Below, piece by piece: positions 1-59,136 of a stretch of 64,000 nucleotides of DNA. The DNA lies in contig NZ_JAQNDL010000001.1 of NCBI RefSeq assembly GCF_028368995.1, forward strand, positions 2,240,001-2,304,000, written 5' to 3'. The position numbers were made by a program, and so were the translations under genes. Under the pieces are notes generated by a model, which was not told where the DNA came from, did no database searches, and was given only the letters and a program-made list of their open reading frames with translations. Positions within the stretch are counted from its first letter, which is position 1. Each line of letters begins with the position of its first letter. The stretch is from Nannocystis bainbridge (GTDB lineage: Bacteria; Myxococcota_A; Polyangia; Nannocystales; Nannocystaceae).

Positions 1-1505
1 GCCAGGCTCGCCAGATCGGGCCCGACCGCCGCGCCCGGGTTCGGCGTGTAGCTGCAGGCGCCGTCGTCCTCGCAGATCACGCCGTCGGTGCCGAGGCCGT
101 CGCCCATCAGCTCCGCGTCCTTCGGGCCCGCGAGGCTGAACATCAGCGGCGCCGTCGCGGCGAGGTTGGAGCTGTCACCGCTGCAGCCCGAGCCGTCGTC
201 GGTCGCCTCGGCGAGGCCCGGGCGGCTGACCAGCGTCACCGTCTCCGCCGCCGGCGACAGCAGCTTGATCGTCAGGTCGCCCGCGTAGCCGGTGTCGATC
301 CCGACCTCGACCTCCACCCCCGCGACCACGTCGAACTCCGACGGCGGCACCATCAGCGTCGCGCAGGCCATCGTCGCCGGCGTGCCGTCGTAAGCCCCGT
401 CCGCGAGCGCCATGCCGAGGTCGACCTCGGCGAACACCTCGACCTCGGTCGCGCCGGGGCAGTCCTCCGGATCGACCACCATCTCCGGGCACAGCGGCTC
501 GAGCGCCTTCTGCAGCGCCGCCGCGTCCTTGTCGTCAGCCTCGGTCAGCGCCGCGCCGAGGTGCCCCAGCATCGCCACGAAGTCCGCCGAAGTGATCGGC
601 GCCCCGCCCAGCATCTCGTTGCTGACCCCCATGTGCGCCGGCTGCATCGCCCGACACGGCGCCGCCGCGCTCACCCCCGGCTCGACGCCCGCCGGCGCAT
701 CGACCTCGGAGCCGTAGACCGCCGGCCCGTCGACGTCCGCCAGCTGCCTCACGAGACATGTCCCAAGGCGCACGTCGTCGACCCCGGCGAAGAACCCCGA
801 CAGCGCCGCGTCGCCCGTCACGCTCGCCAGCCACGCGCCCGTCACCGCCTGCAGCCCCGGCTTGCGACCGAGGCGCTGGTACAGCGTCGCGTCGTCGCCG
901 GGATCCTCGACCACCTCGCCGGCCAGCGCCGTCAGCGAGTCGAGCAGCGCCGCCCGGTCGGCCTCGGTCAGCTCCTGGCCCGGCCCGGCCTGGTGGGCGT
1001 CGAGCGCCGTCGCCACGTCGGCCACGAAGTCGGCGAAATCGATCGCCGACACCCCGAGCCCCGCGTGGGCCGACTGCATGCCCTTGCACGTGTAGGTCGC
1101 GCCCGGGCAGCCCGCGAGCGTCGCCAGTTGGTCGACCAGGCAGCCGAGGAAGCGGCCGCCGTCGAACTCCGCGTTGAGGAAATAGGCGTTGATGCGGTCG
1201 TCGGCGACCACCTGGCCGGCGATCGCCACCGCCAGCGCCTCGGCCCCGTCCGGCCCGCCGAGGCGCGTGCAAAGCCCGTCGTCGATCGGCCCGGTGGTCG
1301 TCCCGACCGTCGGCTCGCCCGTGCTCGTCTCGCTCGTGACCGTGCCGGTGCTCGTCGTCAGCGGCGGCGTCGTCGTCGAAGCCGTGGTCTCACCGCCGGT
1401 CGTCGCCTCGCTCGAGGTCGTCGGCTGCCCGGTCGGCTGGGCCACGTCGTCGGCGCAGCCGGCGGCCAGCGCGAGTGCGAGGGCGAGCCCAGGCTTGGTC
1501 CGCAT
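1..1505 (-). CDS. Lipoprotein with two tandem group I truncated-hemoglobin-like domains and a C-terminal proprotein-convertase P-domain-like region (3' end runs off the window)
   Basis: Manual translation from ATG 1505. Lipobox MRTKPGLALALALAAGC, then a Thr-rich linker. Globin 1: LCTRLGGPDGAEA..VVADDRINAYF..YTCKGMQSAHAGLGVSAIDF. Globin 2: LYQRLGRKPGLQAV..LSGFF..MQPAHMGV. Then VEVGIDTGYAGDLTIKLLSP. Absent from the ORF track because there is no stop in the window. Confidence 0.8.
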   Translation of the reverse strand, partial: MRTKPGLALALALAAGCADDVAQPTGQPTTSSEATTGGETTASTTTPPLTTSTGTVTSETSTGEPTVGTTTGPIDDGLCTRLGGPDGAEALAVAIAGQVVADDRINAYFLNAEFDGGRFLGCLVDQLATLAGCPGATYTCKGMQSAHAGLGVSAIDFADFVADVATALDAHQAGPGQELTEADRAALLDSLTALAGEVVEDPGDDATLYQRLGRKPGLQAVTGAWLASVTGDAALSGFFAGVDDVRLGTCLVRQLADVDGPAVYGSEVDAPAGVEPGVSAAAPCRAMQPAHMGVSNEMLGGAPITSADFVAMLGHLGAALTEADDKDAAALQKALEPLCPEMVVDPEDCPGATEVEVFAEVDLGMALADGAYDGTPATMACATLMVPPSEFDVVAGVEVEVGIDTGYAGDLTIKLLSPAAETVTLVSRPGLAEATDDGSGCSGDSSNLAATAPLMFSLAGPKDAELMGDGLGTDGVICEDDGACSYTPNPGAAVGPDLASL

Positions 1506-1622
1506 CTCCGCATCTAAGCACGAAGGCCGGGCGCGCGCCGCCGGCAAACCGTTCGCGCCGGGCCCATGCGCTGCCGGACCACGCCGCACTCCCGCATCCT
1601 CCCCGACGTCGGGTCGGGCCCG

Positions 1623-2435
1623 TCAGCCGGTCGCCACCAGCAGCGGCGCCGACGCCCGCGAGCGTTCGCGGCGCATGTCGCGGAACACCAGCGCGTAGCG
1701 GGCCCGGTCGGCGTGCACCCGCAGCCACGCGTCGAGGCTCGGCTGCGCGTGCGCGTCGAGCATCTGCCGCATCGCCGCGACCACGCTCTCGTGCAGCTCG
1801 GGCGGCGTCAGCGTGCCGTCCATGTAGCGGACCAGCGCCGGCGCCCGGGCGGCGCTCTGCTCGCGCAGGCCCTGCCACTTGTCGCTCGTGAACTCGACCG
1901 ACGAGTCGCAGTGGTCGGCGGCCAGGCGCGCCATCTGGGCCCAGTCACCCTCCTCCGCGAGCCGCCGGATCTGCGCCCCGATCAGCCCGAACACCTCCGG
2001 GTGGATCGCCAGGATCTCGTGCGTCGGCTCGGCCGACAGCCACGCGTCGGGCTCCTCGACGAACACCGCCCCGACCAGGCCGGAGGCCAGCGGCAGGGCG
2101 CAGGTCAGGTGCTGCAGCCCGAACGAGATGGCCCGCCAGCGGTCGCGGATCTCGTGCTGCCACAGCGTGTTGACCAGCGGCGCCAGCTGATCGGGCGCGG
2201 CCATCATCCGCGCCACTCGCCGCTGCGGGCTCCCGATCGTCGGTCGGTAGGCCTCGAGCACGCGCGGCTGGGTGAACAGCAGGCGCCACTCACCGCTCAG
2301 CAGCTCGACGCGACGAAAGTCGCGGCCGATCAGGTCCAGGACCTGATCGCGGCTGGCCGTGGCCAGCTGGTGCAGCAGAACGTCCTCGATGTCGAGGTAG
2401 CGCTCGCTGCGTATGAGGTACGCGTGGCAGCGCAA
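1623..2435 (-). CDS. Hypothetical protein
   Basis: The C-terminal ~270 aa of ORF 1623..2816 has normal protein composition. TTG 2435 is a plausible start, but the start is uncertain. Confidence 0.7.
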   Translation of the reverse strand: MRCHAYLIRSERYLDIEDVLLHQLATASRDQVLDLIGRDFRRVELLSGEWRLLFTQPRVLEAYRPTIGSPQRRVARMMAAPDQLAPLVNTLWQHEIRDRWRAISFGLQHLTCALPLASGLVGAVFVEEPDAWLSAEPTHEILAIHPEVFGLIGAQIRRLAEEGDWAQMARLAADHCDSSVEFTSDKWQGLREQSAARAPALVRYMDGTLTPPELHESVVAAMRQMLDAHAQPSLDAWLRVHADRARYALVFRDMRRERSRASAPLLVATG

Positions 2436-2692: not shown

Positions 2693-2970
2693 CGCCTGTC
2701 CGAACGGACATGCCCCGAACCCGCGGCCGCCACACTCGTGCAATGGGACACACGTCCCGCGAGACATGGGCTCGCCCGCGCGGCCTCGTGCATCTTGCTC
2801 TCGGGACATGTCCCATTCGCCATGTTTTTTAAGACTTCCGCAGCATCGACGACATGTCCTTCACGACATGTCCATTCTGCCATCTGACCGCACTCCTGCC
2901 TCGTGCCGCCCCGCGACGCGACCCCGGAGCGCACCGCCTGTCCCGAGGCACATGTCCCAAACGCCAGATC
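2693..2970. repeat. Degenerate 14-bp-phased array of TGTC-N6-GACA palindromes (GACATGTC-like junctions)
   Basis: Junction octamers lie at 2693, 2707, 2749, 2763, 2805 and 2819 (one register mod 14) and at 2851, 2865, 2879, 2935, 2949 and 2963 (a second register). Exact palindromes are at 2697-2710 and 2855-2868. Confidence 0.8.
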
Positions 2971-5663: not shown

Positions 5664-6251
5664 GTCTGCGGCAATATCAACAAGGGCGGCCGCGCGCAAG
5701 CGATCGCCCGCGCCGCCCCCCGCAGCGCCGCCTCCGCGCCGGCCGAGACGTGGTCGCCCGCTGGTCTTCGACATGTCTCTCGGACCAGATCACGTCCGCG
5801 CCGTCCATCGGCCCCCGGGTCGGGCATCGCAGCCCCGCGACTGGCACGAATCCCCGGCCCGAAATCATGGCCCGCCCACTCCTTCGATTCGCCCGGGCCC
5901 GCCCGCGAGCCGGGCGCCCTCGGGCGCCCACGGGCGACCTCGTGGCGGCCGACGGGCGCCGCGAGTCGGCTCGCCCGGGTCGCCGTTCCTCGCCCGAACC
6001 GGCAAAGATCACCGCTCGCCGTTCGCCGAGAATGCGCGGACCTGCCGTCGCCGGCGAATCATCATACCGGTGACGTGCGACACCCGTCACCCGGCTGCAT
6101 ACGCAATGGACACCGACCTTATGGCGGTGTTCGGCCCACACCTCGGCGGGCCGACGACCCCACGCGGGGTTACCCGTGTTCCTGTGTCCAGAGCCGTTTC
6201 CGACCCGTAGCTTGCGTATCTTCGCATTCCGATCCTAGCCTTGGGTCGTCG

Positions 6252-8720: not shown

Positions 8721-8817
8721 TCGACCGCGCGACTCTCGGTATTTCCTCTACGTATTTCCCCGAATGTGGGCAGGCGACCGCGAGCCGGCGCACCGGCTCG
8801 CGACGACATGTCGGCGC

Positions 8818-11856: not shown

Positions 11857-12386
11857 CAGACCGGCTCCTTCTGGGCCACACCCTGGCGGTATCGCACCAG
11901 CTTGATCGCCACCAGCCCGTTCTCCTCCTGCACCTCGAGCGCGTCGAGCGGCCGCGGCGACGGCCCGGCCTCGACCGCGCCGTCGAGCGCGAACGCCGAG
12001 CGGTGGCACGGGCACTTGAACTTCTGCGCCTCGGGGTCGTAGTCGACCGCGCAGCCGAGGTGCGGGCACACCGTCGAGAACGCCTGCAGCGCCCCGTCGC
12101 GCTCGAGCACCCAGCACGAGCCCAGCTTCACGTCGGGCGTCTTGTTCCACGCGTCGACCTTGTCGGCGTGGAGCTCGACCCGCACCGGCACCGAACCGGC
12201 GAACGCCGAGCGCTTGCCCGCTGGCAAGAACGCCCCCTCGCCGCCCTTCGACCCGGTCGGGAACAGCAGATAACCGACCGCCGGCACCACCGGCACCGCC
12301 GCCAGCCCCAACCCCAATGCCCCGATCCCCAGCTTCAACACCCCGCGACGGCCGGCGTCCGGCTCCCCTCCTGACCCAGAGGACAT
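11856..12386 (-). CDS. Rieske 2Fe-2S subunit of the bc complex
   Basis: CPHLGC and CPCHRS boxes and a TAT-like GRRGVLK anchor. Overlaps the cytochrome b start. Confidence 0.92.
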   Translation of the reverse strand: MSSGSGGEPDAGRRGVLKLGIGALGLGLAAVPVVPAVGYLLFPTGSKGGEGAFLPAGKRSAFAGSVPVRVELHADKVDAWNKTPDVKLGSCWVLERDGALQAFSTVCPHLGCAVDYDPEAQKFKCPCHRSAFALDGAVEAGPSPRPLDALEVQEENGLVAIKLVRYRQGVAQKEPV

Positions 12387-12510
12387 GTCCCGAGATTCAG
12401 CTTCGTGCTCCGCTCCGTGACCGCGTTCTCGGCTCGACATGGGCCTCCTGCCGCCCACGGCGGCCCCCGCAGGATACCCGACCGGCCGCGACCCACGCTA
12501 CCCTGCGCGC

Positions 12511-21866: not shown

Positions 21867-22148
21867 GCCATGTCCCTCGAGACACATCATCTCCCGCGCA
21901 GTCGGGGCGATGACTCGAAGAATTATCCCTCGCCCTACCATACACATGTCCCCGAGACCATGTCTCGAAGGACATGTCATCCTACCCCCTCCTCACCCCG
22001 CGCACCCCATGCCCCTTGCGACCTGGGACGTTGGCGACGCGCCCGACGTCGCGAATCACATGTCCCATGCGACATGTGATTCGGACCGACACCCACGTCT
22101 CCACCTCCCAAAGTACATGTCCTTCGCGACATGTCCCGAGAAACATCA

Positions 22149-22149
<1 letters not shown>
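21867..22149. repeat. Cluster of 14-bp-phased TGTC-N6-GACA palindromes
   Basis: Exact palindromes at 21871, 21961, 22061 and 22118. Phased junction sets 21867/21881, 21943/21957/21971, 22057/22071 and 22114/22128/22142. Confidence 0.85.
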
Positions 22150-25634
<3,485 letters not shown>

Positions 25635-27859: not shown

Positions 27860-27861
27860 CC

Positions 27862-28515
27862 TCACTCCCGCCGCAGCACCGCGCAGCTGACCTGGTACGG
27901 GCGCGTCAGCCAGCGCAGCCGCGAGCCCGCGGTCCCGCTCGGGCTGTCCCGAAGGCCAGCCAGCTTGCGGAGGTCGCGGACCAGCAGCCACGGCCGGCGC
28001 AGCAGCTCGGGCGCGTAGCTCGGCCCGTCGACGACCTCGGCGCGGACCCGGCGCAGCTGCGGGAACAGCTCGCGTGACATGTCCTCGGGGTCAGGTCGAT
28101 AGTACGTGTCGATCGGGTCCGGGTGGTACGGGTAGCTGAACGGCACCGTGACGATCAGCAGCCCGCCGGCGGGCACCAGCGCCGCCAGCCCGCGGGCCAG
28201 CGCCGCGCGGTCGGTCACGTGCTCGAGCATGTTGCAGCACAGGATCGCCCGCGCCCCGACCGCCTGCAGCCGCGCGTGCCCCTCCGGGCTCAGCGCGTCC
28301 GCGGCGATGTCGACCCCTGGCAGCTGCTTCAGGTCGCTGTGCACCACCTCGGCCCCGCGGGCCCGCAGCGGCGCGAACACCTCGCGGTCGATCCACGGCT
28401 GCACGGCTGTCCTGAAGTGCAGGTCACTGCTGCCGAGGTTGAGCAGCGGCGTCAGCTCCGCGTCGCCCAGCTCCTGCAGCCGCGCCCGCAGCCACCGCGC
28501 CTCGACCTCAAGCAC
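27862..28515 (-). CDS. Methyltransferase-like protein
   Basis: LLNLGS, CNMLEHV, VTVPFSYPYHPDPID. Confidence 0.75.
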   Translation of the reverse strand: MLEVEARWLRARLQELGDAELTPLLNLGSSDLHFRTAVQPWIDREVFAPLRARGAEVVHSDLKQLPGVDIAADALSPEGHARLQAVGARAILCCNMLEHVTDRAALARGLAALVPAGGLLIVTVPFSYPYHPDPIDTYYRPDPEDMSRELFPQLRRVRAEVVDGPSYAPELLRRPWLLVRDLRKLAGLRDSPSGTAGSRLRWLTRPYQVSCAVLRRE

Positions 28516-29344
28516 GGACCTGCTCCTCGGGCCAGCTCGCCACCGACTCGAGCCCGCCGGCCAGCGCGATCTCGGCGACGAAGCCGAGCCGCTCCTTCGC
28601 GCGGGTCGGGTCGAGCACGTAGCGCATCACCTCGCTGCCGCGGTACGGCAGCGCACCGAGGTCGACCAGCTCGGTGCGACCGACGCGCCACGCCAGCGCG
28701 CGCACCACCATCGCCACCGCCGACTCGATCCCCGTGCCCGCGTTGTAGACCCCGACCGGCGCGTCGGCCTCGGTGCAGCGCGCCAGCAGGCGGGCCACGT
28801 CGCGCACGTGCACGAAATCGCGGGTCTGCTCGCCGGGCGTGCACGCGAACCGCTCGCCGGCCCGCAGCGCCGCCAGCAGCGACGGGATCAGCATCCCTGG
28901 CCGCTGACCGGGCCCGTAGACCACCCCGGGCCGCACGATCACCGCCTCGATCCCCAGCCTCGCCGCCGCCGCGCGCACCTCGTCCTCGCCGCGGATCTTC
29001 GCCCGCGCGTACGGCGTGTCGCCGAGCCGCTGCGCGTCCTCGACGAACGGCACCGGCTGCAGCCCGTACACCTCGCCCGAGCTGACGTAGACCACCCGCC
29101 GGGCCCCGCGGGCCGCCGCGATCGCCAGCGCCCGCAGCGGCGCCGCCACGTGCGCTTCAGTCAACGCCGCCTCGCCGCCCTCGCGGCCGCCGCCGGCCCA
29201 GATCAGCGCATGAACTTCAGGACATGTCCGTTCCGCCAGGCCCTCGCGGCCGAACGCGACCACCGGCGCCGCCGCCAACGCGTCCGCCGCGGCGCGGCCG
29301 ATGAAGCCCCCGCCGCCGCCGATCGCCACGGCGGTGACCGTCAC
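28508..29344 (-). CDS. NAD-dependent epimerase/dehydratase
   Basis: GGGGFIG, SSGEVYG, YARAK, RDFVHV. Confidence 0.88.
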
Positions 29345-30318
29345 GCCGCCCCCAGCAGCTCGCGATACCAGGCGATCGTGCGCTGCAGACCTTCGTCGAG
29401 CCCGTGGCGGGGGCGCCAGCCGAGCACCCGCCGCGCCTTCTCGGACGCCAGGAATTGCTCGCGGATCTCCCGCGACGCCTCGCCGAGGATCACCGGCGCC
29501 AGCGCGCGTGCGTCCATGTGGCCGAGCACGCGGTCGACGATCTCGAGCACGCTCTGCGGCCGCTCGTCGGAGAAGTTGAACGCCTCGCCGACCACCTCGG
29601 GCCGGTCCATCTGCTCGGCCAGCTCGAGGTACGCCGCCACCGCGTCGCCGACGTACACGTAGTCGCGTACGAACGTCCCGTCGCTGCGCACCACCGGCCG
29701 CTCGCCGCGGACCACCGAGCGCACCGTGCCCGGGATGATGCGGTTCCAGTTGAGGTCACCCGGGCCGAACAGGTTGCCGCAGCGGGTCACGCACACCGGC
29801 AGCTGGTAGCTGTCGAAGTAGCAGCGCGCGATCAGGTCGGTGCAGCTCTTCGAGCAGTCGTACGGGAACCGGCCCTCGAGCGGCGACGCCTCGGTGTACG
29901 GCAGCACCGGCTGGTCGCCGTAGGCCTTGTCCGAGCTGGCGACCACGACCCGCCGGACCTTGCGCTCGTTGCGTCGGCACGCCTCGAGCAGGTTGTACGA
30001 GCCGCGCACGTTGGCCTCCCACGTCGAGAGCGGGTTGCGCCCGGCGGTGCCGACGATCGTCTGCGCCCCGAGGTGGAACACCGCCTCGATCTCGTGCTCG
30101 TTGATCACCCGCTCGAGCAGCGGGTAGTCCTCGAGCTGGCCCTGCACGCTGACGCAGCGGCGGTCGAGCCCGCGCCCGTGGAACAGGCTGCGCGGGACCC
30201 CGTCGCGGACCAGGCACACCGGCGCCGCCCCGCGGGCCAGCAGCTCCTCGACCATGTGGCTGCCGAGCAGCCCGGTCGCCCCGGTGACGAGCACGTTCTT
30301 GTCTGTCCAAAAGGACAT
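29341..30318 (-). CDS. NDP-sugar 4,6-dehydratase (CDP-glucose 4,6-dehydratase, RfbG-like)
   Basis: [31 protein letters not shown]. Adjacent to rfbF. Confidence 0.85.
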
Positions 30319-30319
30319 A

Positions 30320-33647: not shown

Positions 33648-33669
33648 GCCTCGTCCCGCGGTGATTCGG

Positions 33670-33719
33670 CGCATGTCCCTGAGGGCATGTCTCTCCAGAC
33701 ATATCCTCGAGGACATTGC
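33670..33719. repeat. 14-bp-phased palindrome array (4 junctions)
   Basis: CGCATGTC 33670, GGCATGTC 33684, GACATATC 33698, GACATTGC 33712. Confidence 0.8.
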
Positions 33720-33754
33720 TGTTTGGTCATCCCACCGAACTGGCGAACGCGACG

Positions 33755-34100
33755 AGGCCGGCCTCCTACCCACCGCCCCATCGACGCTGCGGCCGGCACC
33801 GCACGAACGAGCCGGCCTCCTACCTACCGCCTTGCCCGATCGACGCTGCGGCCGGCACCGCCCGAACGAGAGGCGGCCTCCGGTCTACCGCCTGGCCACA
33901 CTGCGGCCGGCACCGCGCGAACGAAGCGGCCTCCTACCCACCGCCCCATCGACGCTGCGGCCGGCGCCGCACGAACGAGTCGGCCTCCTACCTACCGCCT
34001 TGCCCCATCGGCGCTGTGGCCAGCACCGCACGAACGAGAGCCGGCCTCCGACCTACCGCCTGGCCACACTGCGGCCGGCACCGCGCGAACGAAGCGGCGC
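33755..34100. repeat. Higher-order tandem repeat: six 53-61 bp units arranged (ABC)x2, 168-bp period
   Basis: GGCCTCC unit starts at 33760, 33814, 33875, 33928, 33982 and 34043. Shared core CTGCGGCCGGCACCGCnCGAACGA. Confidence 0.92.
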
Positions 34101-34127
34101 CGCCCGAGACCTGCCCTTTCGGCCAGC

Positions 34128-35456: not shown

Positions 35457-35486
35457 CGCCACAACTATGCCACACTCCTGCGCCCC

Positions 35487-36728: not shown

Positions 36729-37493
36729 ATGAAGATCGCGGCGATCCAGAGCGACATCGCGTGGGAGGACCCGGAGGCCAACTTCACCCGCTTGCGCCCG
36801 TGGGTGGCCGCGGCGGCCGCCGCCGGCGCCGGGCTGGTAGTGCTGCCGGAGATGTTCGCCTGCGGCTTCTCGATGACCACCGCCAAGATCGCCGAGCCGC
36901 CGGGCGGGCCCTCGACCCGCTTCCTCGAGCACCAGGCGCGCCAGCACGGCCTGTGGATCTGCGGCAGCGTGCCCGAGGTCCCGCACGACGAGGCCAAGCC
37001 CTACAACACCCTGGTGCTCGCCAGCCCGCACGGCCAGGTCGTCCGCTACCGCAAGATCCACCCGTTCTCGTTCGCCAGGGAGGACGAGCACTACGGCGCC
37101 GGCAGCGACCACGTCACCGTCGACGTCGACGGCCTGCGCTGCACCCTGTTCGTCTGCTACGACCTCCGCTTCGCGGACGAGTTCTGGGGCCGCGCCGAGC
37201 AGACCGACGCGTACATCGTGGTCGCCAACTGGCCCGAGCGCCGGCGCCACCACTGGACCACCCTGCTGCAGGCCCGCGCGATCGAGAACCAGGCCTACGT
37301 CGTCGGCGTCAACCGCGTCGGTCAGGGCAACGGCCTCGACTACAGCGGCGACAGCCGGATCGTCGACCCCTGGGGCGAGGTGCTCGCATCCGCCGCCGGC
37401 GGCGAGACCATGGTGCTCGCCGACGTCCGCCCCGAGGTGGTCCGCGACGCGCGCGAGCGCTTCCCTGTCCTCAAGGACAGGCGCAAGCCGTAG
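36729..37493 (+). CDS. Carbon-nitrogen hydrolase (omega-amidase, YafV/Nit2-like)
   Basis: E-K-C triad in LPEMF, YRKIH and CYDLRF, plus ARAIENQ. Confidence 0.92.
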   Translation: MKIAAIQSDIAWEDPEANFTRLRPWVAAAAAAGAGLVVLPEMFACGFSMTTAKIAEPPGGPSTRFLEHQARQHGLWICGSVPEVPHDEAKPYNTLVLASPHGQVVRYRKIHPFSFAREDEHYGAGSDHVTVDVDGLRCTLFVCYDLRFADEFWGRAEQTDAYIVVANWPERRRHHWTTLLQARAIENQAYVVGVNRVGQGNGLDYSGDSRIVDPWGEVLASAAGGETMVLADVRPEVVRDARERFPVLKDRRKP

Positions 37494-37510: not shown

Positions 37511-37996
37511 TCATGTCCGAACGGACATGTCCCATCCGCCATCCTCCGCCAGCGCCAGCAACGCGGCGCGGGTGACCACCAGCGGCGTGAACGTCAGCGC
37601 CCCGAAGCCGCACGCGATCGTCTGCCGGGCCCAGCCCACGTCCTCGTCGCCGACGATCGCCAGCAGCCCCGCCGGCCCGCCGCGGCGCAGCCCCAGCAGG
37701 GCGGCGTAGCACGGCCACAGGTACGCCCGCGCCTGCTCCTCGCGCGCCTGCGGGGCCACGATCGCCAGCCACGTCGAGGGCCCGCCGACCCGGCGCAGCG
37801 CGAACGCCAGGTCGGCCGCCCACTCGTGGCCGTACGCGTAGAGCTGGGTGTCGCCGACGTCGACCGCCTCGGCGCGGGCCGGCTGCTCGAGCTCCCAGCC
37901 GAGCAGCCGGTGCAGGGCGACGATCAGCAGCTCGGGCCGGCGTTGCAGGAGGTCGAGGACGGGGTCGACGGGCGAGGCGCACACCGGCCTCGCCAT
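37511..37996 (-). CDS. Hypothetical protein; degenerate Rpn/PD-(D/E)XK-like N-terminal domain
   Basis: LLQRRPEL..ADLAF..IVAPQ..YLWPCYAALL..WARQTI resembles, from recall, the myxobacterial RPEL..ADLV..VEVQ..WP.Y..WA..PI family. Confidence 0.55.
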   Translation of the reverse strand: MARPVCASPVDPVLDLLQRRPELLIVALHRLLGWELEQPARAEAVDVGDTQLYAYGHEWAADLAFALRRVGGPSTWLAIVAPQAREEQARAYLWPCYAALLGLRRGGPAGLLAIVGDEDVGWARQTIACGFGALTFTPLVVTRAALLALAEDGGWDMSVRT

Positions 37997-42066: not shown

Positions 42067-42116
42067 GACATGGTTAAACGGACATGTACCATCATACATG
42101 TCTCACAGGACATCAG
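42067..42116. repeat. 14-bp-phased palindrome array (4 junctions)
   Basis: GACATGGT 42067, GACATGTA 42081, TACATGTC 42095, GACATCAG 42109. Confidence 0.8.
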
Positions 42117-42124: not shown

Positions 42125-42880
42125 TCACGCACCGGCGCAGCTGCTCTTGACCCGCGGCGCGTGCGTCGAGTCGGGCCACTTCGCCAGCATGTCGCGAGCC
42201 ACCCGCCGCGCGTCGGCGACGCGACCGGCGGCGCACAGCGCCTCGACGTGATAGGCGATCCGCTCCTGCACCAGCTGCCCGCCCGCGAACCGCCGCGCGT
42301 GCTCGTCCACCCCGGCCAGCGCGCGGGCGCTGTCGTTGCGCTTGAGCGCGCCGCGGATCTCGGCGATGAGCTTGAGCTCGGCGGCGAAGTCCGCGGGCTC
42401 TTCCTCCACAGGCGGGGCGTCGATGCGAGGCCTGGGACGCGACTTCTTGCGCGCCTCGGTCGGCTCCTCGGGCGCAGGCTCGGGCGCTTCCACGACCGCA
42501 GGCGCGGGCGTGACGCTCGGCGTCACGACCGGCTCCGGCGCGGGTGCGAGCGGCGCAGGCGTGGCGATGTTCGGCCTGGCCTCGGGGACAGCTTCGATCG
42601 CGGCCACGGACACCACCTGCGGCGCCTCGGGCCGATCGCGCGCGCTCCACAGGCCGACCGCGGCGGCGATCAGCGCGACCCCGGCGATGACCTTCAAGAC
42701 CACGCCGCCGCCCCCGGTGGCGCCTCCGAGCGCACCGGGGTCCACGTCGGCGCCGCCGGGCGGAGCTGGCCCATGGGCCAGGCGATGCTCGACGGCGGCC
42801 CAGATCCGGTCCTCCGCGCCCGCCTCGGGCACGGCCTCGCGCTCGCCGCGGAGCAGGTCTTCGAGCCGGTCGGACTGCAT
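42125..42880 (-). CDS. Putative anti-sigma-like membrane protein with Pro-rich linker and C-terminal TPR-like helices
   Basis: Coupled to the ECF stop codon. One TM helix, a Pro-rich linker, and HARRFAGGQLVQER..ALC..WPDSTHA. Confidence 0.7.
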   Translation of the reverse strand: MQSDRLEDLLRGEREAVPEAGAEDRIWAAVEHRLAHGPAPPGGADVDPGALGGATGGGGVVLKVIAGVALIAAAVGLWSARDRPEAPQVVSVAAIEAVPEARPNIATPAPLAPAPEPVVTPSVTPAPAVVEAPEPAPEEPTEARKKSRPRPRIDAPPVEEEPADFAAELKLIAEIRGALKRNDSARALAGVDEHARRFAGGQLVQERIAYHVEALCAAGRVADARRVARDMLAKWPDSTHAPRVKSSCAGA

Positions 42881-43463: not shown

Positions 43464-44516
43464 TCACGGAAATCGGACTTCGACCGCGAGCAGGGCGCGA
43501 AAGCTCGCCAGGGCGCCACGGTAAATCTCCCCCAGATTCGCCACGACGAACCGGGGCCTCACGACGTGGACGGCGCCCTCGACGATCGCGCCGACGGCGA
43601 CGCGCGGGTGGGCCGCGTAGAACACGCCCGGGGCCAGATGGAGGGCCACGAACAGCTGGCGCGCCTCGCTGGTGATCGTGTAGCCGACCCCGCGGCCATA
43701 CATGGCGCCGAGCTCGAGGCCGGCGCACAGCGGGAACTCGAACTTGCGCGCGTGCAGCAGCGGACACCCACGCACCGCGCCGACCGCGAGCTGGAGGTCG
43801 GCCCCGCGATCGGGGATGTCGTCGAAGCGGGCCCGTCGCAGCGGCCCGTAGCCGACCTCGAACTCGAGCCGCGCGCGCGGCCAGATCAGCGCCGGCGTGA
43901 GCCGCAAGAGCGCGCCGACGCCCGGTAAGTCGCCGAAGCTCAGGCCGGCGCCGAGCCGCACGCCGCCGCGCACGCGCCTCTCCTTCTTCTGCTTCACCTC
44001 GGGCCGCGGCTGCGGCTCGGGCCGCGGCGGCTCCGGCTGCACCACCGGCTCCGGCGGCGGCTCGGGTTCGAGCGGTGGTTCGAATTCCTCGACCGTTTTG
44101 GCCTCGGCCGCGACCTCGGCGGCGTCTGTCTCTTCGGACATGCGATCGAGGACCGACGGATCGATCGCCATCGCCGCGATCAGGGCCCCGGCGCGCGCGA
44201 GCGCGTCGCACTGCGCATGCGTCAACGAGCGCTGCAGGGTGCCCTCGTCGCTGACCGTCCACAGCCGCAGGTCGAACTCGCCGCCGGGATCCTGGCGGAC
44301 GCGGGCGATCGCCGTCAGCCGCGGGCCCTTGCGCTCCGTCAGCGGCCCGCCGAGCAGGCGCTCGAGCTCGGCGACGACCTCGGCCTCGGCGGGGCAGGTC
44401 GTGGGCGCGTCCCAGCGGAACTCGACGACCGGTCGCGGGCTCGCGGGCGCCGCTGCGGCCGGGCCCATCGCTCCCGCGAGCAGCAGCGCCACCAGCCCGC
44501 CGTGAAGCATCGCCAC
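43464..44516 (-). CDS. Secreted protein with a probable C-terminal outer-membrane beta-barrel
   Basis: Signal peptide, WDAPTTCP N-domain, Pro/Glu linker, and amphipathic beta-strands ending VEVRFP. Confidence 0.7.
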   Translation of the reverse strand: MAMLHGGLVALLLAGAMGPAAAAPASPRPVVEFRWDAPTTCPAEAEVVAELERLLGGPLTERKGPRLTAIARVRQDPGGEFDLRLWTVSDEGTLQRSLTHAQCDALARAGALIAAMAIDPSVLDRMSEETDAAEVAAEAKTVEEFEPPLEPEPPPEPVVQPEPPRPEPQPRPEVKQKKERRVRGGVRLGAGLSFGDLPGVGALLRLTPALIWPRARLEFEVGYGPLRRARFDDIPDRGADLQLAVGAVRGCPLLHARKFEFPLCAGLELGAMYGRGVGYTITSEARQLFVALHLAPGVFYAAHPRVAVGAIVEGAVHVVRPRFVVANLGEIYRGALASFRALLAVEVRFP

Positions 44517-45533: not shown

Positions 45534-45571
45534 AAAAAGGCCGAGCCCCGACCCTGGTGGATCGGGGCTCG
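45534..45571 (-). terminator. Intrinsic terminator after groEL
   Basis: Stem CGAGCCCCGA/TCGGGGCTCG followed by a T5 tract on the minus strand. Confidence 0.75.
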
Positions 45572-51618: not shown

Positions 51619-53127
51619 ATGCAGCGCAGAACCTTCATGAAGTCCCTCGGCGTCGCCACGGCGGCCGGCGCCTCCTTCGGCATTCTTCGTCATCCACGGC
51701 GCGCGGAGGCGTACTGGGGCGAGTGGCCGGCCGACAAGCTCGACGCCATGATCCCCGTCGAGCGTCAGGCCAAGAACGTGCTCGAGCTCTACCTCTACGG
51801 GGGTATGAGCGCGTTCGACACCTTCTACGCGGTGCCTGACTGGGGGAAGAACGACGAGCGGTTCCTCCACGCGTTCTACAACCAGACCCAGACGCGCTTC
51901 GGCCAGTGCGGCTTCGGCAACGAGCTGACCGAGGCGTTCGCCGAGGACGCCAAGGGCACTCTGGTCCACCTCGGCCCGTGGGTCTCGCCGCTGCGGGCCC
52001 GGCCCGACATCGTCGCGCGCATGCGGGTGCTCGTGCAGCGCCACGACCTCCTGCCGCACGAGGGCGCCAACCCCTACGCGCTGACCGGCAGCCGCCTCGG
52101 CTCGCCGCGCCTCGCCGGCGTCGGTGCGTCGATCCAGCGCCACTTCCTCGAGCAGCCCGGCGGCCTGCGCCCGACCCCGTACGCCTACGTCCTCTACCCC
52201 GGCGTCGAGTTCCCGACCGACAACGTGCTCGCCGCCTCCGCCATCGGCCTCCACCCCGGCTCCGCGCGCCCGCTCAGCGTCACCGTCGATCCCAACTCGT
52301 CGCTGTCGCAGCTGCTCGCCCGCCCCAGCGTCGGTGAGGGTCGTGACGACTACGACGCCGCCGTCGACCACTACCTCGCCGCCTACCAGCAGCGCTTCCG
52401 GCCCGGTGGCAAGGGCCAGCTGACCCGCTCGGCCGAGCGCAGCAACTTCGAGTTCGCCCACTTCGCCCGCCGCGGCGCCGGCGAGCTGTCGAGCGTGCTC
52501 TCGGCCGACCTGTTCGAGGACGTCGCCGGCACCCAGTGCAACGACATGTCCGGCAACGACAAGCCGCGCATGCAGGCCCGCATGGCCGCCAGCCTGCTGA
52601 CCCGCGCCCAGGATCAGGCCCGCTACGTCCACTGGATCGACGGCGGCCTCAAGCCCAACCCCTCGGCCGGCCACGACACCCACGACAGCCACGTCGAGGA
52701 CTCCTCGCGCAACGTCTCGCACACCCTGCAGTGCCTGGCCGACATCATCAACGCGCCGAACGAGAACGACCCCGGCAAGATCAACCTCGACGAGACGATG
52801 ATCGTCATCAACACCGAGTTCGGCCGCACGCCGCACCGGCAGGGCCAGTCGGGCCTCAACCACTGGCCGCAGGGCATGGTCAACGTCGTCATCGGCGGCC
52901 CCATCACCGAGGCCGAACGCGGCATCTACGGCGCCATCACCGAGGCCGACGGCTTCGCCGACACTTACATCAGCCCGGCCGAGAACCGCATGCTCGTGAT
53001 GATGGCCCTCGGCATCTACCCGTTCAGCTCGCAGACCTTCGCCGTCGGCGACGTGGCCGGCGGCGTCAAGAACCAGGCCGAGGCAGCCCAGCGGCTGCGC
53101 GACGTCTACATGGGGCTCAAGCTCTGA
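51619..53127 (+). CDS. TAT-exported DUF1501-like protein
   Basis: TAT motif MQRRTFMK, then LYGGMSAFDTF, HDTH, TEFGRTP and NHW. Confidence 0.85.
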   Translation: MQRRTFMKSLGVATAAGASFGILRHPRRAEAYWGEWPADKLDAMIPVERQAKNVLELYLYGGMSAFDTFYAVPDWGKNDERFLHAFYNQTQTRFGQCGFGNELTEAFAEDAKGTLVHLGPWVSPLRARPDIVARMRVLVQRHDLLPHEGANPYALTGSRLGSPRLAGVGASIQRHFLEQPGGLRPTPYAYVLYPGVEFPTDNVLAASAIGLHPGSARPLSVTVDPNSSLSQLLARPSVGEGRDDYDAAVDHYLAAYQQRFRPGGKGQLTRSAERSNFEFAHFARRGAGELSSVLSADLFEDVAGTQCNDMSGNDKPRMQARMAASLLTRAQDQARYVHWIDGGLKPNPSAGHDTHDSHVEDSSRNVSHTLQCLADIINAPNENDPGKINLDETMIVINTEFGRTPHRQGQSGLNHWPQGMVNVVIGGPITEAERGIYGAITEADGFADTYISPAENRMLVMMALGIYPFSSQTFAVGDVAGGVKNQAEAAQRLRDVYMGLKL

Positions 53128-55329: not shown

Positions 55330-55344
55330 GCGGTCCCGCCGCCA

Positions 55345-55528
55345 AACATGGCCCCTGCGACATGGCGCTTTCGCCATGTTCAGGGGCCTCGTCGCGAGCG
55401 GCCGCGGACCGGCATGGATGCGCGCCCCTCGAGACATGTCTCTCTCGCCATGCTCAATAACTCCATGGCAAGCGGCCACGGACGCGCACCGATGCATGCC
55501 CCTTGAGACATGTCTCTTACGACATGTC
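55345..55528. repeat. Cluster of 14-bp-phased palindrome junctions between convergent genes
   Basis: Phased sets 55345/55359/55373, 55433/55447 and 55493/55507/55521. Confidence 0.8.
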
Positions 55529-55584
55529 CCGTAAAACTCGTCCCGAGGAGCCGGGAGCGAAGTTCCTCTTCCTGACCCCGATGC

Positions 55585-55770
55585 CCCCCACGGCGCCGGC
55601 GTCACATCGAGCGCAGCTCGGCCATTCGCCGCTCGGCCATTCGCAGCTCGGCCATCCGCCGCTCGACCAGCTTTCGCTCCGCCTCTTCCGCCCGCGACCC
55701 GACCCCACGGCGCCGGCGTCACATCGGGCGCAGCTCGGCCATCCGCCGCTCGACCAGCTTTCGCTCCGCC
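55585..55770. repeat. Duplication of the 3' end of the adjacent gene with internal 12-15 bp expansions
   Basis: CCCCACGGCGCCGGCGTCACATCG(A/G)GCGCAGCTCGGCCAT..CCGCCGCTCGACCAGCTTTCGCTCCGCC occurs at about 55585 and 55703. Confidence 0.9.
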
Positions 55771-56639: not shown

Positions 56640-56725
56640 CTCGCATCGCCCGCTGCGGGCGCCCCGGCATCAGCACTTCGCGCCGAATTTTTGGTCCTCG
56701 CCCGCCCACGTCGCACACTCGCCGC

Positions 56726-57472: not shown

Positions 57473-57513
57473 CACCCCTTGGCGAGCCCGTGCGCACGCG
57501 ATACGCCTGATGC

Positions 57514-59136
57514 GTGCTCCCTCGTGGGCCTCTGCGTCCCGTCGTGCTGACCCTCTCGGCCGGCCTCCTCGCGCTCGGCTGCCGGGCCGATGGCGCGCCG
57601 ATCGACGACGACACCGGCAGCGACACCGGCACCGGCAGCGACACCGAGGCCAGCGACGTCCCGAGCCCCGGCTTCCTCAACCCGGCGCTCGGCGACTTCA
57701 TCGTCTCCAGCACGCAATATGTCCCAAAGGACATCGTCGTCCAGAAGATCACCGTGGGCAACACCCAGCTGATCATCGACGGCCAGACCGCCGGCACGCT
57801 CGGCCCGGGTAGCGCGCTCGGCGAACTGACCGGCGATCGTCTGCGGATCTTCCTCCACGGCGCCCTCGCGCTCGGCACCCACACCCTGCAGATGGCCTCG
57901 CACACCCCCGAAGGCCCGCTGTTTTCGGCCGAGCTGACCATGAACGTCACGGCGCCGGAGATCCAGTTGCCGCGGGTCTGGACCGAGCTCGAGCCCGACC
58001 CGCGCGATGTCGGCGACGCCCTGCTCGTCAGCGGCGCCGGCTCTGACAGCCTCCTCGGCGTCCTCGCTCGCGGCCCCGTCCCGACGCTCCGCCTCTACCG
58101 CGCGGATGCCGACACCTGGGCCGAGACGCCCTTGCTCGAGACTACACTCAAGGGACATGTCCCGGAGGCCATGGCCTTCGCGCCAGGTATCGCCGCGCTC
58201 GCGCTGCCGCCGACGCCCGGCAGTGACATCAGCGTCGTGCGCATCGCCTATCGCCGCGGCATGCCGGGCGACGCCATCGTCACCCACGACTTCACGATCG
58301 CCCCCGAGGCGGGCATCGGCCCCCTGCAGACGGCCGTCGACCTGTCGGCCGACATCTTCGGCCACGCCGAGTTCACCATGCTCGGTCGGCCCTTCCTCCT
58401 CGGCGACGTCCTGTTCGCGGAGTTCATCGCCGCCGACGACGCCGAGATCCCTCACCCCGGCGATCGCGGCATCGCCTACGTGCGACGAAGCAGCGATCGC
58501 AGCAACTGGTCGCCGCCGGAGCGGGTCCCGACCGCGAAACCGCTCGATCTCGACGCACTCGGCCCCGCGCTCTCCCTGCCACACCTCAGCCTCGGCGCCG
58601 GCATCTCCGTGCGCCTCGGTCAGCGCCTCACCGGCATTCTCTCCCTCTCGGACGCCGGCGCCGCCCTCGTCTCCGAGCCGGGCGAGGACATCGACCTGCT
58701 GCCCGGCGTGCCCGCGGTCCTCAGCACGATCTCCAGCAACCTCGGCGCCCGCACCGTCGCCGCCGTCACCCCCGATCGAGGCGTCGGCATCGCGTTCCTC
58801 GGCACCACCGGCAAGCCCGACAACACCGCCGTCACCGTCCCCCGCGAGAAGCTGCCCGACGCCCGCATCACCGCCCAGCCCGCCGCCGGCGTCCTCCTCG
58901 GCTACTCCGTGTTCCTCCTGCCCTACGGCGACGCCGCGCCCGTGCACCTGGTGTTCGGCGACGGCATGCGCACCTACGTCTTTCCGCTCGTCGACCCCGA
59001 GCCGCTGTCGTGCCGCGCCGTCGCGCTGATGCCCAGCCTCGGGGGGAACCTCGACGCCCCGGGCATCCCGCTCGCCTGCCTTCAGGGCGAATCGCTGCGC
59101 GTCGGCGTCCTCAAGGCGGGCCCCGCCGAGCTCTGA
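57514..59136 (+). CDS. Hypothetical lipoprotein
   Basis: Lipobox LALGC, a DTG linker, and a beta-rich body. Confidence 0.75.
   Translation: MLPRGPLRPVVLTLSAGLLALGCRADGAPIDDDTGSDTGTGSDTEASDVPSPGFLNPALGDFIVSSTQYVPKDIVVQKITVGNTQLIIDGQTAGTLGPGSALGELTGDRLRIFLHGALALGTHTLQMASHTPEGPLFSAELTMNVTAPEIQLPRVWTELEPDPRDVGDALLVSGAGSDSLLGVLARGPVPTLRLYRADADTWAETPLLETTLKGHVPEAMAFAPGIAALALPPTPGSDISVVRIAYRRGMPGDAIVTHDFTIAPEAGIGPLQTAVDLSADIFGHAEFTMLGRPFLLGDVLFAEFIAADDAEIPHPGDRGIAYVRRSSDRSNWSPPERVPTAKPLDLDALGPALSLPHLSLGAGISVRLGQRLTGILSLSDAGAALVSEPGEDIDLLPGVPAVLSTISSNLGARTVAAVTPDRGVGIAFLGTTGKPDNTAVTVPREKLPDARITAQPAAGVLLGYSVFLLPYGDAAPVHLVFGDGMRTYVFPLVDPEPLSCRAVALMPSLGGNLDAPGIPLACLQGESLRVGVLKAGPAEL

Follow-up and report, generated by a model that had tools for sequence, protein, structure and literature searches.

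A 14-bp palindrome stacked past gene ends and conserved within genes of Nannocystis, a candidate site for a dimeric DNA-binding protein

The window analysed here, a stretch of 64,000 nucleotides from the genome of Nannocystis bainbridge with a GC content of 0.67-0.74 along its length, contains 16 exact copies of TGTC-N6-GACA and 17 of the octamer GACATGTC. All lie at the starts listed in the original prediction, against a chance expectation of about 0.8 for each pattern; shuffled sequences gave means of 0.74 (maximum 3) and 0.83 respectively, with none of 100 shuffles reaching 16 in the one case or 17 in the other. The base 3' of TGTC is, as had been claimed, always C (10 dyads) or T (6 dyads).

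All sites are listed without strand, and the species counts given here come from a comparison with sister species. A single GACATGTC within ORF 1-1505(-) (755..762) is kept in 4/4 species, as are the copies within ORF 27862-28515(-) (28076..28083) and the epimerase-like ORF 28508-29344(-) (29221..29228). The same holds for the operon-junction dyad that overlaps the initiation codon of gene 29341-30318(-) (30304..30317), the dyad within ORF 43464-44516(-) (44127..44140) and the GGACATGTCC found approximately 40 bp upstream of the Rieske gene (12382..12389). For dyad TGTCCGAACGGACA (2697..2710) TGTC/GACA, and for dyad ATGTCCCAAAGGACAT in ORF 57544-59136(+) (57720..57733) TGTC-N6-GACA, is kept in 4/4 species. 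A bare dyad in the final 30 nt of the nitrilase-family gene (37466..37479) is kept in 3/4; the GACATGTC within the DUF1501 gene (52543..52550), the GGGACATGTCCC in ORF 57544-59136(+) (58154..58161), the dyad just past the 3' end of ORF 42125-42880(-) (42099..42112) and a single GACATGTC in a divergent intergenic region (5770..5777) are each kept in 1/4; and a single GACATGTC situated where the kinase/TPR and ADYC genes converge (8805..8812) is kept in none of the four.

Several sites fall in stretches that could not be aligned with the sister species. These include an intergenic GGGACATGTCCC unit before the metallophosphoesterase gene (2805..2812), a dyad 40 nt past the stop of gene 32508-33647(+) (33688..33701) and a unit about 100 nt past the stop of gene 53200-55329(+) (55433..55440), while two abutting units in a 14-bp register, GACATGTCC-TTCAC-GACATGTCC (2851..2872), occupy a species-specific segment. 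Two further abutting units, GACATGTCT-CTTAC-GACATGTCC, are situated in a convergent intergenic region (55507..55528), with no sites in the orthologous segments of four other species, and a dyad plus unit (37514..37531) is placed in the 17 bp that separate the convergent genes 36729-37493(+) and 37511-37984(-).

A cluster is found downstream of the Ser/Thr kinase gene 22149-25634(-). It starts with a dyad at 21871..21884 and continues with three units in a 14-bp register, ACATGTCC-ccga-GACCATGTCT-cgaa-GGACATGTCA (21940..21978), within a stretch of roughly 230 bp that is missing from genomes G005 and G007; dyad ACATGTCCCATGCGACATGT follows at 22061..22074. The dyad plus unit about 14 nt past the kinase stop codon (22118..22135) has a degenerate but recognisable copy in the same place in five other species. 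The kinase coding sequence itself contains a dyad at 23414..23427, kept in 5/5 orthologues, and another in the kinase domain directly past the DWG motif (24990..25003), of which TGTC/GACA is kept in 5/5 orthologues despite a change of spacer.

Scanning the 11.05-Mb genome for TGTC-Nk-GACA reveals a specific peak at k=6, with 3663 copies, compared with 78 at k=5, 120 at k=7 and 29-175 over all other values of k from 0 to 19. A secondary peak at k=20 (984 copies) is an echo of the 14-bp register in which sites are stacked. The excess at k=6 survives a 5th-order Markov model (128 and 131 copies in two simulations) and a synonymous-codon shuffle of high-confidence coding DNA, in which 703 dyads are observed against 47.3±4.9 expected. 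There are 2237 copies of GACATGTC genome-wide against 1661-1668 under the 5th-order model; the count is for the most part absorbed because the model learns the motif's own hexamers, and the reversed word CTGTACAG occurs only 30 times. The motif represents the sole outlying palindrome family in this large genome of a soil myxobacterium, with thousands of copies at about one per 3 kb. Its proposed genome-wide distribution is borne out across the five contigs, where each 200-kb bin contains 23-105 sites.

Both patterns belong to a single 14-bp element, GACATGTC being the junction between two abutting sites. The dyad has an informative core of T-G-n-C-Y-N4-R-G-n-C-A within an extended consensus of rACATGTCC-N4-GGACATGTy, comprising at least 10 informative positions. 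Its spacing is rigid: perfect TGTCC-N4-GGACA occurs 1987 times, as opposed to a mean of 6.8 at N2, 3, 5, 6 and 7, and ATGT-N8-ACAT reaches 2000 copies where other spacings have a median of 32. Stacking is equally strict, as evident from the counts of GACA-N0-TGTC (2237), GACA-N14-TGTC (1305) and TGTC-N20-GACA (984), and from dominant site-to-site distances of 14, 28, 42 and 56 bp (144, 88, 61 and 36 cases). Tolerance of mismatches is graded by position (G2>C 0.1x, G2>T 1.2x, any T3 change about 30x, C5>T 170x) and does not follow a mutation spectrum. The 14-bp stacking unit has no counterpart in the original prediction, and nor do the placement at gene ends and the turnover of intergenic sites as opposed to the conservation of those within genes.

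According to gene calls from our own crude GC3/codon model (84% coding), the density of sites is 3.13 kb-1 in convergent, 1.25 kb-1 in tandem and 0.44 kb-1 in divergent intergenic regions, and 0.14 kb-1 in coding DNA. Intergenic DNA is enriched 11-fold, density is 7 times higher in convergent than in divergent regions, and 38% of convergent intergenic regions contain at least one site. The sites form about 3300 clusters, chiefly downstream of genes, and begin 2-25 nt past stop codons, with peaks of the first base at +2, +11 and +16. By contrast, sites within genes are solitary, distributed along the length of the gene and conserved.

Such positioning just past stop codons could indicate that the dyads act as RNA, either as terminators lacking a tail or as hairpins stabilising mRNA 3' ends. 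Hairpin-plus-T terminators are indeed rare (181 of 5423 downstream regions, compared with 95 on the antisense control strand), while the motif is present in 1758 of these regions and shows a weak negative association with terminators (odds ratio 0.72, p = 0.06); furthermore, the dyads can adopt hairpins of -7.8 to -11.7 kcal/mol (z-scores -2.7 to -4.5). However, these hairpins are weak relative to the canonical groEL terminator (-28.7 kcal/mol), and only a single loop length is tolerated. The frequency of Watson-Crick pairing, at flanking as well as inner pairs, is near the expectation from the margins (0.64 vs 0.54, 0.57 vs 0.54 and 0.52 vs 0.53), which implies that compensatory change is absent and that the two arms are independent. 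When 1199 sites were aligned in the direction of transcription, no RNA-strand signal was apparent: their logo shows symmetry and lacks a T-run, G.T and A.C mispairs are balanced (149 vs 161 and 192 vs 192), and loop orientation is unbiased. A dyad is found within 150 bp downstream of only 5 of 102 tRNA genes, and four of these five stretches, read by eye, contain a GC-rich hairpin followed by T-rich sequence. Given in addition the conserved coding sites spread along genes, a function in RNA appears very unlikely.

Comparison between species reveals two different modes of evolution. At codon third positions within the motif, 140/140 bases are identical across four species, compared with 62109/73207 (84.8%) at other third positions, although these species are not independent, so that the significance is overstated, and part of this conservation may stem from protein constraint or from the ascertainment of sites in the genome under study (G000). 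Aligned non-coding motif bases, by contrast, are no more conserved than their surroundings (132/160, or 82.5%, vs 81.4%). Intergenic arrays turn over rapidly and are species-specific: those of the window have 4-6 sites where orthologous segments have 0-2, and they lie in segments that cannot be aligned between species sharing 85-90% coding identity. Such a pattern is as compatible with turnover or selfish spread as with a function.

The dyads might alternatively constitute a selfish family resembling REP or REPIN elements, in which palindromes forming single-stranded hairpins are copied by a transposase and any host function is secondary. Besides the species-specific arrays, the concentration of clusters downstream of genes and in convergent regions would be expected of such a family, as would the location of some arrays within local tandem duplications and the number of perfect 20-mers, which is 142 in G000 but 56-69 in sister genomes. 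Yet a search for the Y1/RAYT transposase family (PF01797) gave no hits in 6/6 genomes of the genus, while control genomes scored. The 605 distinct N6 spacers between perfect arms are a poor fit to copying from a master element, no conservation extends outside the dyad of roughly 25-35 bp, and the symmetric logo is devoid of the asymmetric head of REP sequences. Nor would this origin readily account for the 703 high-confidence coding sites with their frozen synonymous bases, or for the pair of species at 94.7% identity, in which 24/28 sites are kept and, counting in both directions, 7/7 differences in aligned sequence are substitutions, with no indels. A selfish origin is accordingly regarded as unlikely.

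The proposal that the motif is lineage-specific is upheld by its phyletic distribution. TGTCC-N4-GGACA is present in about 1550-2090 copies per complete genome of the genus and 67-169 copies in two other genera, and is at background in 33 genomes of ten further genera. One genus of Polyangia carries the motif on a massive scale and two carry it at lower levels, whereas the ten other genera sampled in the family do not rise above background. Genus specificity with weaker representation in relatives, thousands of copies at the density noted above, enrichment after genes and DNA-level excess and conservation in coding and non-coding sequence would also suit an uptake signal of the Neisseria DUS or Pasteurellaceae USS type, with inverted pairs giving hairpins at gene ends. 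However, ACATGTCC is rarely found alone, since for about 79% of its 3947 copies a partner arm with at most four mismatches lies at exactly N4 (65/3947 at N7), and to our knowledge a strict dyad and 14-bp arrays are not features of uptake sequences; such a role would be even more surprising than one in RNA. Least probable of all is that the motif is the by-product of biased repair, methylation or a restriction-linked process, without any reader protein. Such an origin has been discussed for cyanobacterial HIP1, likewise hyperabundant, and it could generate a palindrome whose excess, within and outside genes, withstands a codon-aware null; the bipartite 4-N6-4 form also resembles the targets of Type I methyltransferases. 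Nevertheless, the number of informative positions and the graded tolerance at each of them argue against it, and neither 14-bp arrays nor the intergenic and convergent enrichments would be expected from repair bias.

Independent arms, rigid spacing, strand symmetry, position-specific tolerance and frozen synonymous bases together point to a site on double-stranded DNA read by a dimer, rather than to an RNA hairpin or a mobile REP. We estimate a probability of roughly 55% for this explanation as a whole, namely one dyad element, recognised on double-stranded DNA by a putative sequence-specific homodimer and serving as an architectural mark at gene ends. Lone sites within genes are fixed down to synonymous positions, whereas in the promoter-free DNA past stop codons, foremost between convergent genes, sites abut head-to-tail in the strict 14-bp register. 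The most likely role would be an architectural or topological mark ending transcription units, perhaps as the target of a nucleoid protein, as an insulator or roadblock, or as a place where topoisomerase docks. The original prediction of a lineage-specific, chromosome-wide site for a dimeric protein thus stands as regards distribution, while the dimer is favoured indirectly, by the half-sites, N4 spacing, symmetry, tolerance and synonymous conservation, and the binder itself is putative.

The best candidate for this reader, though a rather unlikely one when taken alone, comes from stand-alone Fis-type HTH proteins of about 72 aa, here termed mini-Fis, which make up an expanded family. A lead is provided by the expansion of this family in exactly the three motif-bearing genera: Nannocystis genomes have 11-15 copies each (7 and 6 for a partial genome of 6.6 Mb), those of the two other genera have 6-9 and 5-7, and the count is 1-4 across the remaining 38 genomes. 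Counts agree between queries from the same genus and from a distant one, the control family HTH_17 is without such a split, and the paralogues of the genus form a separate clade (support 99/97). This co-variation may nonetheless reflect no more than two or three evolutionary events, and the near-invariance of the recognition helix LLGITRHALKRRI, motif-free genera included, counts against the candidate. Of the 11 paralogues in G000, one has an atypical site upstream, one has sites within 250 bp downstream and nine have none nearby. NifA, which also has a Fis-type HTH, reads TGT-N10-ACA, compared with the N8 spacing of the motif.

No exact match was found among the known regulator sites tested, in keeping with the earlier view of an unrecognised operator. 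Sites of the CRP family (MrpC, CooA, CRP), of the type TGTGA-N6-TCACA and read by dimers, share the TGT../..ACA half-sites, but would require TGTC and GACA to be 8 bp apart, and k=8 is the rarest of all spacings, with 29 copies. The PadR-family operator consensus, given as ATGT-N8-ACAT in PMC3506622, is identical in geometry; however, a search for PadR genes was negative in G000 and in the single-contig G001, both rich in the motif, and the thousands of sites avoid promoter regions. Like the motif, HIP1 (GCGATCGC) is described in PMC5861425 as a lineage-specific palindrome over-represented in coding and non-coding DNA of cyanobacteria, occurring about once per gene and having no known function; the motif differs in being bipartite with a free 4-bp centre, in its stacked arrays and in its strong bias to gene 3' ends.

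DUS and USS are genus-level words present in thousands of copies, in genes and as inverted pairs after genes, but here the unit is itself the inverted pair at fixed spacing. The REP and BIME sequences of enterobacteria and pseudomonads, associated with RAYT, are likewise short palindromes, repeated hundreds to thousands of times, that form regular intergenic arrays after genes, and E. coli BIME-2 arrays are strong gyrase sites independently of transcription (PMC6379681). By contrast, the motif is fully symmetric, with variable spacers between conserved arms, a strict 14-bp register, no RAYT in 6/6 genomes and about 700 conserved copies within genes. Fis-type HTH readers, such as NifA at its UAS and the nucleoid protein Fis, serve like CdbA as nucleoid proteins or activators; dimeric or tetrameric, they read TGT/ACA-type or repeated half-sites at hundreds to thousands of places. 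For the myxobacterial nucleoid protein CdbA, PMC7156744 reports 569 ChIP peaks, located both within and between genes and with little effect on transcription; its motif is a direct repeat rather than a dyad.

The two words singled out in the original prediction occur in the window exactly as often as claimed, with 16 copies of TGTC-N6-GACA and 17 of the octamer GACATGTC; dinucleotide-preserving shuffles gave means of 0.74 and 0.83 respectively, and none of 100 came near either count. That the dyad is always followed internally by C or T also holds, the fifth base being C in 10 and T in 6 of the 16 window sites. GC content is 67-74% in the window (C1:2240001-2304000) and 71.5% in the 11.05 Mb assembly (five contigs, 90.5% complete). 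Across this assembly the dyad is found 3663 times at a spacer length (k) of 6, compared with 29-175 times at other spacers from 0 to 19, a peak that confirms the proposed spacing. The single exception among non-6 spacers is TGTC-N20-GACA, with 984 copies; taken with the counts of GACA-N0-TGTC (2237), GACA-N14-TGTC (1305) and TGTC-N10-TGTC (3246, both strands), the whole pattern is a single 14-bp period.

This excess persists under stricter null models. Two genomes simulated from a fifth-order Markov model contained 128 and 131 copies at k = 6. The same model gave 1661-1668 copies of GACATGTC, against 2237 observed, because it had learnt the hexamers of the motif itself and so absorbed most of the octamer's excess; when the same words are written backwards as a control, the contrast is 2237 to 30 for GACATGTC and 3947 to 63 for ACATGTCC. 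A codon-aware null, in which synonymous codons were permuted gene by gene (5748 genes) and dyads scored over 5.78 Mb of high-confidence coding DNA, gave an expectation of 47.3 ± 4.9 dyads at k = 6, of which there are 703 (15-fold), and observed counts at k = 3, 9 and 12 were at or below expectation. When every 4-mer palindrome with a gap of 0-20 was counted de novo, the strongest outliers all proved to be forms of one dyad element, namely TGTC-N6-GACA, ATGT-N8-ACAT (2000 copies, where the median for other spacings is 32), ACAT-N12-ATGT, GACA-N0-TGTC, CATG-N10-CATG, CTGT-N8-ACAG and GTCC-N4-GGAC. A variant arm, ACCTGTCC...GGACAGGT, is enriched too, as reflected in the 779 copies of CTGT-N8-ACAG and exemplified at C2:1217477-1217801. 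The dyad system is therefore real, very strong and genome-wide, and apparently undescribed so far: a literature search of main texts returned no paper containing the motif strings and none linking REP elements with myxobacteria.

The sequence logo of the element reads r-A-C-(A/C)-T-G-T-C-C-y-n-n-r-G-G-A-C-A-(T/G)-G-T-y, outside which there is just a fading 14-bp echo and the flanks are unconserved. Approximately 79% of the 3947 copies of ACATGTCC are matched by a second arm at a spacing of exactly N4 (with up to four mismatches), compared with 65 copies at N7, which implies that the dyad is the unit and that GACATGTC arises where two dyads abut. The commonest distances between sites are 14 (144 cases), 28 (88), 42 (61) and 56 bp (36), and 28% of neighbouring sites lie less than 200 bp apart. 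Dyad centres group into about 3300 clusters; 1999 of these consist of one centre, and the biggest holds 14. Certain arrays lie within local tandem duplications of approximately 36 bp, with one dyad per unit. A larger mobile element or MITE can be dismissed, as intergenic segments that carry arrays match other places in the genome only over the 23-36 bp of a dyad. Similarly, the ATG within ACATGTC opens a good reading frame in just 7% of oriented cases, and hence is usually not a start codon.

Only one spacer length is tolerated, and T1, G2 and C4 of the half-site matter, with position 3 being free. Changing G2 to C reduces the count to 0.1 times that of the control and changing it to T gives 1.2 times the control, all three changes at T3 are approximately 30-fold enriched and C5>T is 170-fold enriched. 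This graded, position-specific profile, in which G2 cannot become C or T and which does not follow a transition/transversion pattern, counts against the last-ranked of four rival explanations of the dyad: a by-product of DNA repair or methylation.

The positions of the sites relative to genes were studied using 8250 genes (84% coding) from a purpose-built, crude caller based on GC3 and codon log-odds. By this annotation 2343 of the 3663 sites are intergenic, with a density of 3.13 per kb between convergent genes, 1.25 per kb between tandem genes and 0.44 per kb between divergent genes; at least one site is present in 38%, 17% and 11% of these regions respectively. In tandem regions, 71% of sites are closer to the upstream stop codon than to the next start codon. 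The first dyad bases concentrate 2-25 nt past the stop codon and are most frequent at +2, +11 and +16, the first of these peaks arising where the stop codon TGA merges straight into CATGTC. The density in coding DNA is 0.14 per kb, many of the 1320 sites called as coding being in doubtful ORFs that are really arrays. Strong reading frames contain 708 sites (703 in the codon-shuffle set), against 8-27 for other in-phase spacers; these are distributed approximately evenly along genes, with a depletion in the last fifth and no bias towards the 3' end. The motif was proposed to be chromosome-wide, and sites are indeed found in each 200-kb bin (23-105 per bin), with no concentration at the origin or terminus, including where GC skew flips sign. 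The genes of the window itself encode eukaryote-like kinases with TPR repeats, an ADYC domain protein, ECF sigma factors and a DUF1501 protein. This content agrees with GroEL, whose best named relatives come from Polyangia and Kofleriaceae metagenome-assembled genomes (75% identity), in assigning the organism to the myxobacterial class Polyangia.

Synteny with four other species of the genus extends over the whole window, with 82-95% identity in aligned blocks. Among 64 comparisons of TGTC-N6-GACA (16 sites in four species) 33 could be aligned, and 30 of these keep the pattern; for the octamer, 35 of 68 comparisons were aligned, of which 21 keep it. The remaining 64 comparisons fall in non-aligning segments, which are the array-bearing intergenic regions (2720-2941, 21871-22168, 33649-34123 and 55330-55709), each with 1-6 sites in the window and 0-2 in the orthologous segments. 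The dyad beside the kinase stop codon is recognisable in five other species, whereas the rest of that spacer is not. Both dyads inside the kinase gene are kept in all five orthologues, one of them retaining TGTC and GACA while its spacer changes. Where a motif-defining position in the window is a third-codon base, it is unchanged in 140 of 140 comparisons, against 84.8% at other third positions; for second-codon bases the figures are 128 of 128, against 94.3%. Because the species share ancestry and the source genome was used to pick the sites, the nominal p value of 1.5 × 10-10 overstates the case, though the direction is clear. By contrast, aligned non-coding motif bases show no special conservation (82.5% identical, compared with 81.4% in their surroundings). 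Between two sister genomes, G005 and G007 (94.7% identity), 24 of 28 sites are shared; counting in both directions, all seven differences in aligned sequence are substitutions, with three more sites in unaligned segments.

Several features lie close to sites in the window. The dyad at 33688 is directly followed, within a stretch that is unalignable across species, by a tandem array at 33752-34098 of approximately six copies of a 57-59-bp unit, including two 168-bp super-units that are 94% alike. This array is at the 5' end of a long ORF (33687-36683) in which the aminotransferase domain starts only at residue 634. A sugar-nucleotide and polysaccharide cluster at 26372-33647, encoding a flippase-like protein, epimerases/dehydratases, a nucleotidyl transferase and glycosyltransferases, has conserved dyads at 28076, 29221 and 30304, in genes and at one gene junction. 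On the reverse strand at 10153-12341, a Rieske gene precedes one that encodes a 567-aa fusion of cytochrome b with two c-type cytochrome domains, and a fully conserved GGACATGTCC lies upstream of the Rieske gene, approximately 40 bp from its called start.

In 51 genomes of the family, TGTCC-N4-GGACA was counted alongside the same pattern reversed, as a control. The five large genomes of Nannocystis contain 1550-2090 copies (control 3-6), and a 6.6-Mb partial genome of the genus 333 (control 4). Lower numbers are found in the genera g2 (87-169 in four genomes; control 2-10), g4 (67-161 in three; control 1-4) and g22 (6-20 in five; control 2-7), and the 33 genomes of ten further genera have 0-11 copies (control 0-7), in keeping with the predicted lineage specificity. 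By the identity of one gene, that for fumarase, to the source genome, g2 stands at 77-78%, g4 at 65% and a further genus, g28, at 78-81%. The strict 20-mer form is absent from 12 genomes of other families in the class. It occurs 142 times in the source genome and 56-69 times in the remaining large Nannocystis genomes, an approximately two-fold difference; the 14-bp core count of 1987 is inside the range for the genus, and this surplus with an ordinary core count suggests recent array growth or sharpening in the N. bainbridge lineage. No alternative hyperabundant palindrome, a 'dialect' of the dyad, could be found in 200 kb of a genome from a neighbouring genus (G041), which contained 15 TGTC-N6-GACA sites.

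The second rival is that the dyad is an RNA-level terminator or stabiliser. The arms, however, vary independently: the frequencies of Watson-Crick pairing at position pairs 4/9, -1/14 and -2/15 are 0.57, 0.64 and 0.52, against 0.54, 0.54 and 0.53 from the margins, and neither compensatory changes nor tolerance of G.U on the transcribed strand were found. Mispairs of G.T and A.C on the sense strand number 149 and 161 in one comparison and 192 each in the other, and the loop sequences have no orientation preference. When 1199 sites were oriented by their flanking genes, the logo was symmetric and had no T-run corresponding to a U-tract. Dyads thus differ from intrinsic terminators, in which a GC-rich hairpin precedes such a tract on the sense strand; dyad hairpins are also weak, with folding energies of -7.8 to -11.7 kcal/mol, compared with -28.7 kcal/mol for the groEL terminator at 45542-45571 on the reverse strand. 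The latter is canonical, with a 13-bp stem of which 10 pairs are G-C, a 4-nt loop and a T-rich tail, and so classic terminators coexist with dyads in this genome. Among 102 tRNA genes, just five are followed by a dyad within 150 bp, and in four of these the downstream stretch, read by eye, is a GC-rich hairpin and then T-rich sequence. Hairpin-plus-T terminators are rare, being detected in 181 of 5423 downstream regions compared with 95 on the antisense strand, and their association with dyads is weakly negative (odds ratio 0.72, p = 0.06), such that mutual exclusion of the two is weak; for these reasons some arrays may have a terminator-like role. Overall, several independent tests point the same way, to a protein site in double-stranded DNA rather than an RNA hairpin.

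In a search for the protein that might read this site, 23 proteins, mostly encoded beside dyads in divergent regions, were scanned. A DNA-binding domain was detected in one, a 72-aa stand-alone Fis-type helix-turn-helix (HTH) protein, and no other DNA-binding gene was found among the 23. It belongs to a family of small proteins (here 'mini-Fis', approximately 66-80 aa) whose LLGITRHALKRRI helix is almost unchanging. The source genome has about 11 copies of the family, including those at C1:1913456-1913674 (an example of the Nannocystis clade), C2:73091-73297, C1:1320087-1320287 and C2:2991539-2991775 (the ancestral type). Across 14 genera, copy number tracks motif load: 11-15 in Nannocystis (7 and 6 in the partial genome), 6-9 in g2, 5-7 in g4, and 1-4 both in g22 and in the other 33 genomes, so that the three dyad-bearing genera have 5-15 copies and most others 1-4. 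The counts agree whether the query is from the source genome or a distant genus, and the split is absent from HTH_17, a control family of small HTH proteins. A tree was built from 29 rows that a regular expression selected among 35 loci (60 columns, many open forks, at least seven copies missed). In it the Nannocystis paralogues fall into a clade of their own (support 99/97), as do three g2 copies, which implies that at least two expansions were independent. NifA, another Fis-type HTH protein, reads TGT-N10-ACA. Co-occurrence makes mini-Fis a candidate lead to the reader; counting against this, its recognition helix is almost invariant in all genera, including those free of the motif. Also against it, autoregulation is not apparent, as one of 11 paralogues has an atypical upstream dyad and one has two dyads within 250 bp downstream, and the genes flanking two of the paralogues are uninformative.

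The best reading of these data, to which a probability of roughly 0.55 is given, is that the dyad is an array-forming site of a dimeric protein binding double-stranded DNA, chiefly at the ends of transcription units. The lineage-specific and chromosome-wide parts of the original prediction stand, and its dimeric binder is retained at the strength of this reading. A topological or insulating role for the arrays is suggested only by analogy with BIME-2 arrays, which are described as binding gyrase, and with the accumulation of E. coli gyrase downstream of transcription units (PMC6379681). A more elaborate scheme, which seems improbable at present, is a sequence-coded punctuation of these 11-13 Mb chromosomes: the expanded mini-Fis family (approximately 72 aa) would bind thousands of 14-bp dyads and polymerise in 14-bp register on arrays at transcription-unit ends, the coated arrays would insulate neighbours or steer topoisomerases to colliding positive supercoils, and single in-gene dyads would act as conserved anchor points.

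Hyperabundant genome words are rare, and REP, HIP1 and DUS/USS each began work on genome organisation, mobility or DNA exchange. The grammar of the dyad is unusually clean, with fixed spacing, a 14-bp register and defined half-site letters, and it shows a rare pairing of fast-evolving arrays at gene ends with single in-gene copies frozen at synonymous sites. Experimental entry points to the organisation of large myxobacterial chromosomes are few, and dyad probes with a short candidate list offer a direct handle on that of very large, GC-rich ones. For annotation and the engineering of biosynthetic clusters, dyads mark gene ends and may alter expression if moved.

Among known regulators, the closest geometry is that of PadR operators, given as ATGT-N8-ACAT (PMC3506622), an inverted repeat that is identical in the dyad. 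Against PadR as the reader, its gene is missing from the source genome and from a single-contig sister genome with 2090 sites, PF03551 having no matches in either and 1-2 in four other genomes of the genus. Sites of CRP/FNR proteins such as MrpC have half-sites 8 bp apart in a 5-N6-5 geometry, unlike the k = 6 dyad; the original prediction likewise gave MrpC a longer spacer, and k = 8 is the rarest spacing, with 29 copies against 3663. CdbA of Myxococcus is described as reading a direct repeat (PMC7156744), and does not match an inverted dyad.

The remaining two rivals invoke known classes of genomic repeat. The first, a selfish REP-like family without a RAYT, draws on the likeness to REP/BIME elements of abundant short palindromes grouped in extragenic DNA, chiefly after genes. 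Unlike in REP/BIME-RAYT systems, however, no Y1 (RAYT) transposase was found: PF01797 had no matches in the source genome and five others of the genus (completeness 80-91%), whereas six control genomes scored. Nor do dyads share a loop or asymmetric head, having 605 distinct N6 spacers, a symmetric logo and no conservation outside the dyad, and they are not confined to extragenic DNA, with 703-708 in high-confidence coding sequence at 15 times the codon-aware expectation. The third rival is a DNA-uptake signal; such a signal is a single oriented word, by contrast with a unit of paired arms at N4 (about 79%). HIP1 resembles the dyad in being over-represented in coding DNA beyond codon usage (here 703 against 47.3 ± 4.9), but is contiguous, array-free and without gene-end bias, whereas the dyad is bipartite, builds arrays in a 14-bp register and is approximately 11-fold denser in intergenic DNA.
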